A stretch of DNA of 64,000 nt from sequence record PQ390715.1. One strand, written 5' to 3'. Each line of letters begins with the position of its first letter. The first letter of the stretch is position 1. The translations under genes were made by a program, and so were the position numbers. Positions 44,106 to 44,944 of the stretch are shown piece by piece. This DNA comes from Escherichia phage SHEFM2K. The notes beneath the pieces are model-generated. The model did not search any database and was not told the origin of the DNA. It saw only the letters and a list, made by a program, of their open reading frames with translations.

Positions 44106-44116
44106 TTTTCATATAG

Positions 44117-44146
44117 CCAGCACATTGTTGCTGGTTTTTTTTTTTG
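44117..44146 (+). terminator. intrinsic terminator
   Basis: Hairpin CCAGCA / TGCTGG followed by a run of 11 or more T; directly after the stop of 43896..44105. Confidence 0.7.
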
Positions 44147-44906
44147 GTTTTAAACTACAGAATTATTTGAATTGAATTATGAAAGGATTAATTTTAATAT
44201 TATTGGATTCATCTAACTCATTTCATTCGTTAGCTGAAGAATATTCGTTACTACGTAACTCATATTCATTTAATTAAATTAATTATAAAGAACTTTAAAA
44301 GATTTAATACTTGACGGGATTTGTTGAGGACATTTTCATCCCCCCGCAGGGGAATGAAGACAATAAAAAAGAGACAATGAAGTCTCTATTTCTTGACGCT
44401 GATGGTTTCAGCATTTATTGTATTGCGAATTTCTTAAAAATATATTAAGAACGAAAGCGGGTTGCTCTGTTTCTCTCTATCGCAGTCATGTGCAACGGTC
44501 GTCAGTCTTAATCATCCTGACACTCACCTGAAAGTCTATACAATCAAACTTCAGGCTGTTTATTAAAATCACTTAATAAACTCCCTTAGCAAATCTGGTA
44601 AGGTGCGATCCTTATATGTCTATCTAGGAACTCTCTGTATGCTTATCGGAGTTCTTTATTGAGCCGCATTGCCGTGAGGGGTTCAAACTATGCCCACATC
44701 TAACGGGTTTCTTTTGCTCATCGCACTGTTGAACTGCTCATCTGCCATCTACATTTTCGATAGGATCAGGTTCTAATTTATATGCATTTCTGCATTCAAC
44801 AGGATTGTCATTACTACAACAAACATTATAGCACAAACTTTAAAGTTGTCTCACTATTTTTATAAAAATATTCATTAAGTACTTAAAATATTGCAAATAA
44901 CTAATC

Positions 44907-44914
44907 TATAAATA
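44907..44914 (+). promoter_or_regulatory. T4-type late promoter motif TATAAATA
   Basis: Exact octamer 31 bp upstream of ATG 44945. Confidence 0.55.
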
Positions 44915-44944
44915 TTTTGATAACAAATAGTTTGGTGAGGAATT

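Follow-up and report, generated by a model that had tools for sequence, protein, structure and literature searches.

A conserved, multi-copy structured RNA element in an ORF-free interval of Rak2-like jumbo phages

Introduction

What is encoded in the 839 nucleotides (nt) between positions 44106 and 44944 of the 64,000-nt stretch of Escherichia phage SHEFM2K (PQ390715.1) analysed here? This whole stretch is referred to below as the window, and the strand given in the record as the plus strand. The phage is an Asteriusvirus, a 121Q/PBECO4-like, Rak2-type jumbo coliphage. Across all six frames, the interval is the longest in the window without an open reading frame (ORF) of at least 60 amino acids (aa), and the coordinates that a preliminary description of the same DNA gave for it are exact; the next longest apparent gaps, at 60.5-62.9 kb in the 60-64 kb region, are artefacts of long structural genes that run off the end of the window. 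The preliminary description also proposed that the interval holds a non-coding RNA or regulatory element. This idea is supported: no ORF is conserved on either strand, and covariation reveals a fold that has been kept. Conservation, copy number, non-coding nature and fold are each documented below. We favour, with about even confidence, the reading that the element is a stand-alone gene for a highly structured, trans-acting non-coding RNA of ~455 nt, and other explanations are considered where the evidence bears on them.

Results and Discussion

A conserved family with several copies per phage

The interval is 99.4-99.9% identical to its counterparts in JP4, UB, PBECO4, 121Q and other phages. 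With a sensitive BLAST search, conservation extends to other Rak2-like genera, in which the central ~480 nt (about 44295-44790) are ~70-76% identical at the DNA level; orthologs were found in GAP32, CBB, BF, Yen9-04, Munch and XbC2, with a partial match in RaK2. The core of the interval that belongs to the family is at about 44341-44802. Related phage records have 4-5 matching places each. The complete genome of ECO103 4-12-1 contains four paralogs, the number per Asteriusvirus genome (at ~18, 128, 208 and 262 kb), all on one strand and 70-79% identical to the query, and the window contains one copy only. Pattern scans added further copies from IMG/VR, from ~30 metagenomic loci and from three bacterial genome assemblies, the last out of 185,579 species genomes, in which most of the 46 pattern matches arose by chance and only three are real (L057, L077 and L085). 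Among complete E. coli genomes, two of 5,426 carry the element; there was no match among 72,556 plasmids. Conservation, repeat copies and covariation (see below) are far beyond chance. Because the 4-5 diverged paralogs are each held at their own locus across genera, their maintenance suggests specialised variants or a dosage requirement.

The copies in bacterial genomes lie in islands and are complete but diverged, each with a phage-type promoter. In Serratia sp. 2723 (L077 3257-7963), the element adjoins a large serine recombinase in an insertion at dapE/yffB, and in Serratia fonticola GTA-SR07 (L085 61-5490) it adjoins a large serine recombinase and two ParB/RepB-like genes; at this latter locus, the element is close to a duplicated rof at the island edge. 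The copy in an Enterobacteriaceae metagenome-assembled genome (MAG; L057 6438-7830) is found between thiM and a gene for a CI/S24-type repressor. In E. coli LR-29-1 (L129 14100-24450), the element is part of a ~10-kb integrase-bearing island at ffs, which also holds candidate defence genes of type PDC-M45 (DuOB, DUF488, mSLOG/DUF4326).

A divergent metagenomic subfamily keeps only the half equivalent to 44340-44600, the other half being different. It is found on the following contigs:

L105 1035-1254
L101 9287-9460
L116 672-887
L118 7424-7594
L121 49-222

One copy of this subfamily adjoins an MFS transporter gene and genes for very large BNR/CBM5-12 proteins; another is on a phage-like contig with Thg1-like and DUF6267 genes.

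Covariation and fold

RNAalifold predicted 73 pairs, 40 of them with compensatory double changes, from a MAFFT alignment of 20 members, and 71 pairs, 41 of them compensatory, from 27 members aligned in the opposite (minus) orientation and extended to the promoter. The structure with the named helices listed below was counted on the 27-sequence alignment, with 500 shuffles as one control and the same helices with partners slid by 1-3 columns as another. Standard pairs fill 87.4% of the cells, compared with 71.8% in the shuffles and 39-44% in the slid helices, and the covariation score is 0.412, compared with 0.150 and at most 0.11, respectively; none of the 500 shuffles reaches either value. 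Both sides have changed in 53 of 80 pairs, both pseudoknots included (shuffle mean 34.9; slid controls 18-28). A count on the 20-member alignment agrees with this in its overall picture. The element is thus a structured non-coding RNA, as judged by compensatory substitution in excess of both the shuffled and the slid controls.

The fold comprises ~14 covarying helices, with long-range pairings and two pseudoknots; three sites take optional or variable stems. Two pseudoknots are counted because helices e, k, f and i, in which e crosses k and f crosses i, are each individually supported. The components are as follows, on the strand that we take to be the sense strand (see below):

44341-44 / 44349-52, minus: hairpin P0, near-invariant and GC, CCCC-UGCG-GGGG on the minus strand, just past the predicted terminator
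44370-75 / 44382-87, minus: hairpin b, the terminator stem, which covaries
44417-44555, minus: double-pseudoknot domain, the 3' half of the minus-strand RNA, kept in the divergent subfamily
44417-23 / 44538-44, minus: helix e, 98-100% paired, compensatory changes
44424-28 / 44480-84, minus: helix f, 98-100% paired, compensatory changes
44431-36 / 44446-51, minus: helix g, closing an optional insertion
44453-57 / 44473-77, minus: helix h, 98-100% paired, compensatory changes
44461-65 / 44492-96, minus: helix i, 98-100% paired, compensatory changes
44498-505 / 44517-23, minus: helix j, from pair counts
44527-32 / 44550-55, minus: helix k, from pair counts
44556-44625, minus: linker, with the invariant block ACTCCCTTAGC at 44580-44590 (GCUAAGGGAGU on the minus strand) and GGTAAGG...CCTTATATGTCTATC
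44626-33 / 44649-56, minus: hairpin o, AGGAACUC / GAGUUCUU, compensatory changes in all six core pairs
44660-64 / 44716-20, minus: helix p, 100% paired, four of five pairs compensatory; encloses helix q and a variable stem (domain 44660-44720)
44672-75 / 44703-06, minus: helix q, inside helix p
44726-33 / 44795-802, minus: helix t, 8 bp, six of them compensatory, joining the 5' leader to the core (domain 44726-44802)
44742-49 / 44759-69, minus: helix s, a bulged hairpin inside helix t
44782-44795, minus: variable hairpin inside helix t

At the linker site, other copies carry an inserted hairpin (TTTGGACGN..TTGTA). The two hairpins named in the preliminary description are both real (44341-44352, and AGAGAC/GTCTCT at 44370-44387 with its T-rich tail), and neither forms the core of the fold. 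Two long-range helices in the plus-strand RNAalifold model (44393-96/44765-68 and 44401-05/44620-24) vary on one side only and would be mismatched on the minus strand; they were not relied on.

Non-coding nature and comparison with known RNA families

No ORF is conserved in position, frame or sequence on either strand among 29 family members. A stop position is common to at most 13 of the 29, and the encoded peptides vary in length and sequence; furthermore, the lengths of insertions and deletions between paralogs do not keep to multiples of three. These comparisons exclude both a decayed gene and a type I toxin locus, and they tell against a protein gene that is intact in relatives and interrupted in this phage, which the preliminary description had allowed for. 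A type I toxin-antitoxin system (hok/sok or ldr/rdl type) was considered and rejected for want of a conserved small hydrophobic ORF among the 29 members: a 28-aa hydrophobic ORF at 44690-44776 is shared by paralog D only, is frame-shifted in GAP32 and is missing in several variants. Likewise rejected was a group I intron, as the flanking genes are complete, with the left-hand ORFs ending at their terminator and the endonuclease VII gene starting at 44945.

ARAGORN found no transfer RNA (tRNA) or transfer-messenger RNA (tmRNA) gene anywhere in the 64-kb window, and the tmRNA models of Rfam were likewise without a match. More broadly, the Rfam 15 search, which spans group I and II introns, RNase P, 6S, GOLLD, ROOL, HEARO, riboswitches, small ribozymes and others, gave no gathering-level match in the whole window or in six divergent members. 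In the region of the element (E up to 10), nothing inside it scored better than E ~2; the best scores (E down to 0.0017) cover flanking terminators only and are far below the gathering score. The Rfam comparison called for in the preliminary description thus returned no family. By-eye likenesses to RNase P CR-I/CR-V, the CUGAUGA core of the hammerhead, a T-loop and tmRNA were set aside, there being no covariance-model match behind any of them.

Consequently, we regard it as extremely improbable that the interval is a tRNA cluster, a set of small stable RNAs or a decayed protein gene, given the empty ARAGORN and Rfam searches, the lack of an ORF kept among the 29 members and the non-triplet insertions and deletions. 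The first two had been suggested in the preliminary description; in place of a small stable RNA, the product would be a pseudoknotted RNA of ~450 nt. The element resembles the tRNA region of T4, with its small RNAs, in being a non-coding stretch between genes of a T4-like myovirus, but it differs in being a single large RNA without tRNAs, present in multiple copies dispersed through the genome. What could be cited for a protein gene is that some automatic annotations (JP4, Yen9-04 and K64-1) place tiny hypothetical ORFs here. These three records, together with E9.1, BAU.Micro_ELP-22 and SD-15_S21, have two to four tiny automatic "hypothetical protein" ORFs inside the element, none of them conserved, and well-curated related records leave the interval empty; the tiny ORFs are probably spurious.

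Promoter, terminator and sense strand

The signals predicted to delimit the transcript are:

44825-44853, minus: element promoter, TGAGACA (44853-47), 16 nt, TGcTATAAT (-10 at 44830-25); a consensus signal of a recurrent phage class
44818, minus: predicted transcript start, 7 nt past the -10, from promoter geometry
44360-44387, minus: predicted terminator, AGAGAC/GUCUCU (44387-44370) followed by UUUUUAUUGU (44369-44360), from a terminator scan

The predicted minus-strand RNA would accordingly extend from ~44818 to ~44362, a length of ~455 nt. The promoter belongs to a class with the consensus TG(A/G)(A/G)AC(A/G)-N15-17-TATAAT, usually with an extended -10 TG, which occurs seven times in the window (0.18 expected) and 20 times in the ECO103 genome, nearly always on this strand. 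In the window, the occurrences are:

1313-1341, 7702-7730, 17732-17760, 26628-26656, 44825-44853 and 49526-49554, minus: TG(A/G)GACA-N16-TG.TATAAT
50368-50396, plus: one occurrence of the class

The five other promoters on the same strand as that of the element sit 14-88 nt upstream of ORFs of 239-351 aa, and the recurrent class looks like the main sigma-70-type gene promoter of the phage. It corresponds to the "TGAAACG + TATA" class, which has been reported in CBB and GAP32 (PMC5259590). Weak internal BLAST matches of 44810-44865 within the window are explained by this recurrence. The element promoter points into the element, and more than 1 kb downstream of it is free of ORFs; judged by sequence consensus, the element would therefore qualify as a stand-alone gene, with a promoter of its own and no ORF behind it. 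A promoter of this type is found beside every family member, including the island copies (TGAAACA-16-TGcTATACT). The predicted terminator is less uniform: its A/U tract is near-invariant, and the hairpin is present in the window and in most copies, and absent from paralogs C and D, RaK2 and the island copies. Hairpin b is terminator-like on both strands.

Beyond the promoter and the terminator, four properties of the sequence bear on the strand. First, the curated helices contain 86 G.U pairs versus 19 A.C on the minus strand; helix h has an internal invariant G.U on this strand, next to a pair that shows AU-to-GC compensation, and variants of P0 keep pairing through U.G on the minus strand where the plus strand would have A.C. 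Second, minimal variable stems are capped by UUCG or UACG on the minus strand. Third, conserved unpaired positions are rich in A and G on this strand (A 34%, G 24%, U 25%, C 17%). Finally, the mean folding z-score relative to dinucleotide shuffles is -3.6 on the minus strand and -2.8 on the plus strand, the former being favoured by 11 of 14 sequences (Wilcoxon p ~0.05); for the window copy the values are -2.68 versus -1.51. Taken together, these six independent lines (promoter, terminator, wobble, tetraloops, composition and folding energy) make it quite likely that minus is the sense strand, and the evidence thus leans away from the plus strand assumed in the preliminary description. A plus-strand argument from two invariant G.U pairs was discarded: one of them came from a mis-registered helix q, and the other adjoins an invariant A-U at the base of helix o, neither of these two pairs being supported by covariation.

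Direct repeats and the conserved 3' edge

Two direct repeats flank the terminator region:

44310-44323, no strand assigned: motif 1, CTTGACGGGATTTG, a direct repeat of motif 2, conserved in all members
44392-44405, no strand assigned: motif 2, CTTGACGCTGATGG, a direct repeat of motif 1

These motifs (CTTGACG...) lie on either side of a stretch that holds hairpin b, the A/U tract and P0. Both are changed together to CTTCGT... in the divergent subfamily, and this joint change points to a candidate partner that would bind both CTTGACG repeats. Motif 1 shares 11 nt with E. coli tmRNA (GACGGGATTTG), which we take to be a coincidence.

Motif 1 also contains the -35 of a promoter-like site on the plus strand, TTGACG (44311-16), followed after 17 nt by TTTCAT (44334-39). 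The plus strand could be the functional one, with an RNA starting from the 44311-44339 site; or both strands could be transcribed, with a short plus-strand RNA of ~45-55 nt that would end at hairpin b and regulate, as an antisense RNA, the 3' end of the minus-strand RNA. This is consistent with the conservation of the -35 (TTGACG/CTGACG) and of its 17-nt spacing, with a good -10 (TATCAT) in some copies, and with a hairpin b that is terminator-like both ways; the plus-strand RNAalifold structure also covaries, and such a transcript would include or border on the most conserved bases (motif 1, P0 and the A-tract). However, the site was not listed by the promoter scan, and most copies have no A at the critical -11 position of the -10, which makes it a doubtful promoter. 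The divergent subfamily has CTTCGT in place of the supposed -35, with a like change in the downstream repeat; this speaks for a common binding motif and against a promoter. As wobble counts, UNCG caps, composition and z-scores lean to the minus strand as well, we consider a functional plus strand unlikely.

Possible roles of the RNA

The following sequence of events would account for the predicted signals and the fold. Host sigma-70 RNA polymerase would transcribe the element leftward, on the minus strand, from TGAGACA-16-TGcTATAAT (44853-44825), and in the window copy the transcript would end at hairpin b and its U-tract (44387-44360). The RNA would fold into two domains, with long-range helices and two pseudoknots, and the folded RNA would then probably act in trans during infection; a scaffold or decoy that binds proteins and a catalytic RNA are equally plausible forms of such action. 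Action in trans is probable from gene context: no co-directional gene follows the element in the window copy, in the GAP32 and Munch orthologs or in three of the four island copies, and a purely cis role therefore cannot be general.

Several points weigh against a stand-alone minus-strand RNA of this kind. The most invariant bases of the element (P0, the adjacent CAT and motif 1) lie beyond the predicted terminator and 3' end, and for this reason a model in which the RNA simply ends there is inadequate. The terminator stem, itself short, is lacking in some paralogs and in the island copies. Plus-strand models fold too, and covariation alone cannot fix the strand because the helices are almost purely Watson-Crick; promoter, terminator and strand all rest on consensus signals. 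Paralogs B, C and D and the copy in the E. coli island are closely followed by co-directional genes, an arrangement compatible with a leader. Lastly, no binding partner, target or catalytic motif was identified for the element.

The gene order in these latter copies raises the possibility of a cis-acting leader, in which the minus-strand RNA would form the 5' part of longer transcripts and control them by put-like processive antitermination or by attenuation at hairpin b. The element has a gene-type promoter directly at its start and a weak hairpin with a U-tract behind it; conservation extends beyond this terminator; the next gene begins tens of bases past motif 1, with no obvious promoter between, in the E. 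coli island as well as in paralogs B, C and D; and all copies in a genome are co-oriented with long leftward gene arrays. The put RNA of HK022 is ~70 nt long and has two stem-loops. The element is like put in its position directly downstream of a promoter and upstream of a terminator, in having no obvious protein partner and in belonging to a phage that relies on host RNA polymerase, but it is ~450 nt long and, in several copies, without downstream co-directional genes. To our knowledge, put and EAR elements are all far smaller than this element with its two pseudoknots. Moreover, transcripts continuing from the window copy and from the GAP32 and Munch orthologs would run antisense into late genes, downstream genes are convergent in three island copies, and the genes downstream are unrelated from copy to copy. 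We regard a cis-acting leader as unlikely.

The distribution of the copies bears on another possibility, namely that the element produces an origin transcript, a persistent R-loop of which would prime DNA synthesis; the copies would then be phage origins, and the island copies would let islands replicate. Copies number 4-5 per 350-kb genome, share one orientation and are spaced at roughly even intervals; a U/A tract and a G/C run lie between two direct repeats; and some copies are in small integrative islands, where genes for recombinases and ParB/RepB-like proteins adjoin them. The promoter class has, in addition, been reported upstream of DNA-synthesis genes in CBB (PMC5259590). With ColE1 RNA II and T4 oriF/oriG, the element shares the form of a ~0.5-kb ORF-free unit with its own sigma-70-type promoter and a structured RNA, in several copies per phage genome and also in enterobacterial mobile elements. 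It differs from them in having no plasmid similarity (none among the 72,556 plasmids) and no GC-skew signature, cumulative skew being without an inflection at copies B, C and D, although skew is a weak test for phages; its fold is also under much tighter constraint than any known for primer RNAs. Neither an unwinding element nor an initiator gene is a consistent neighbour, and we know of no primer RNA that requires conserved pseudoknots and loops to this extent. An origin function thus appears quite improbable.

The island copies could, alternatively, reflect a signal or decoy used for hijacking: either a cis-acting packaging or mobilisation signal, or an RNA copied by defence islands or satellites to sense or interfere with Rak2-like phages. 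Diverged yet complete copies with the same promoter type are found in integrative islands of Serratia, the Enterobacteriaceae MAG and E. coli, the last beside PDC-M45-type candidate defence genes. Such copies are nevertheless very rare (3 loci in 185,579 species genomes; 2 of 5,426 E. coli genomes), strand-asymmetric compensatory changes are not expected from a signal at the DNA level, and the role of the RNA in the phage would be left unexplained. As an account of the family, this is very unlikely.

Relation to other large phage RNAs

A stand-alone large RNA gene would not be without parallel in phages. GOLLD and ROOL are large, "ornate" structured RNAs, often carried by phages or prophages, for which there are cryo-electron microscopy structures (PMC12286853). 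The element resembles them in its large size class, its many covarying helices and pseudoknots, its carriage by phages and mobile elements and its non-coding nature; in contrast, it matches neither covariance model, and it is distinguished by its Enterobacterales jumbo phage hosts, its 4-5 diverged paralogs per genome and its own phage-type promoter. In the distantly related jumbo phage PA5oct, RNA sequencing identified two long non-coding RNAs of 236 and 451 nt, ncRNA001 and ncRNA002, which map to the terminal repeat and are abundant transcripts over the whole course of infection (PMC7318152). Relatives of Rak2-like phages therefore do make long non-coding RNAs, and those of PA5oct are comparable to the element in coming from ORF-free regions, in length and in belonging to such a relative. 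Homology is another matter, since an nhmmer search with the family profile found no match in the PA5oct region holding both RNAs.

The literature that was searched, including the full text of recent papers on Asteriusvirus genomes, yielded no description of the element. Because it is also without a match in Rfam 15, and GOLLD and ROOL are analogues in kind only, the element looks like a new RNA class or family within an already known category, that of large structured phage non-coding RNAs.

Boundaries and neighbouring genes

The remaining features of the locus are:

43060-43896, plus: baseplate-hub-like ORF with a match to Pfam T4_baseplate; left neighbour
43896-44105, plus: 69-aa ORF; left neighbour, before the terminator
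44115-44146, plus: intrinsic terminator (hairpin 44115-44136 and T-run) from the terminator scan, ending the left-hand plus-strand genes; a boundary only
44147-44309, no strand assigned: AT-rich spacer with a GC content of 0.21, weakly conserved between genera
44907-44914, plus: T4-type late promoter motif TATAAATA, serving the endonuclease VII gene; a boundary only
44945-45436, plus: endonuclease VII gene, named from the annotation of related phages; right neighbour

The preliminary description had placed the element between a strong terminator and a late promoter and had called the interval GC-richer. Both signals are present at the positions listed, and each belongs to the neighbouring plus-strand genes rather than to the element. 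The compositional claim applies to the core (44340-44804), whose GC content of 0.40 is in the top 5% of windows of the same size (mean of the window, 0.343), but not to the whole interval, which comes to only 0.328 because both flanks are at 0.21.

The AT-rich spacer contains ATTCGTTA twice (44225-44232 and 44243-44250); at this site, copies from other genera have a hairpin with a (C/A)TTCGTT loop, similar to the CTTCGT that the divergent subfamily has in its repeats. To the right, the ORF at 44945-45436 has no Pfam match at E up to 0.01, though related records name it endonuclease VII. A bidirectional terminator-like hairpin (AAGGGAGC..GCTCCCTT, 45398-45471), which accounts for several weak Rfam matches to small RNAs, is located between the convergent endonuclease VII and SbcC-like genes. 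In ECO103 4-12-1 (128961-129917) and Munch (2026-2982; locus L014), the RNA element is separated from endonuclease VII by a 318-aa ORF on the opposite strand. In these relatives the ORF takes the place of the promoter-proximal flank; it is absent from the window and may be a mobile, homing-endonuclease-like insertion.

Significance

In the Rak2-like phages, with their 350-kb genomes, the family is a conserved component that annotation has so far missed; candidates for therapy against E. coli, Klebsiella and Salmonella are among these phages. Recognising the family also corrects the annotation of several GenBank records that contain spurious small ORFs. The family lends itself to direct tests, for the hosts are E. 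coli and relatives of it, cultures of the phages exist, and precise targets follow from the predicted ends, helices and promoter. The copies in integrative islands next to candidate defence genes hint that the family may be involved when phages and mobile elements come into conflict.

RNAs of large size and intricate fold are rare, and nearly all of those that are understood are ribozymes or the core of a major cellular machine. On the most far-reaching view, which we hold to be speculative and improbable, the family would represent a new kind of large functional RNA, acting as a ribozyme or as the RNA core of a machine made of RNA and protein. The phages would depend on several specialised paralogs, and defence or satellite islands of enterobacteria would copy the RNA with its phage-type promoter to sense or sabotage infection by Rak2-like phages.

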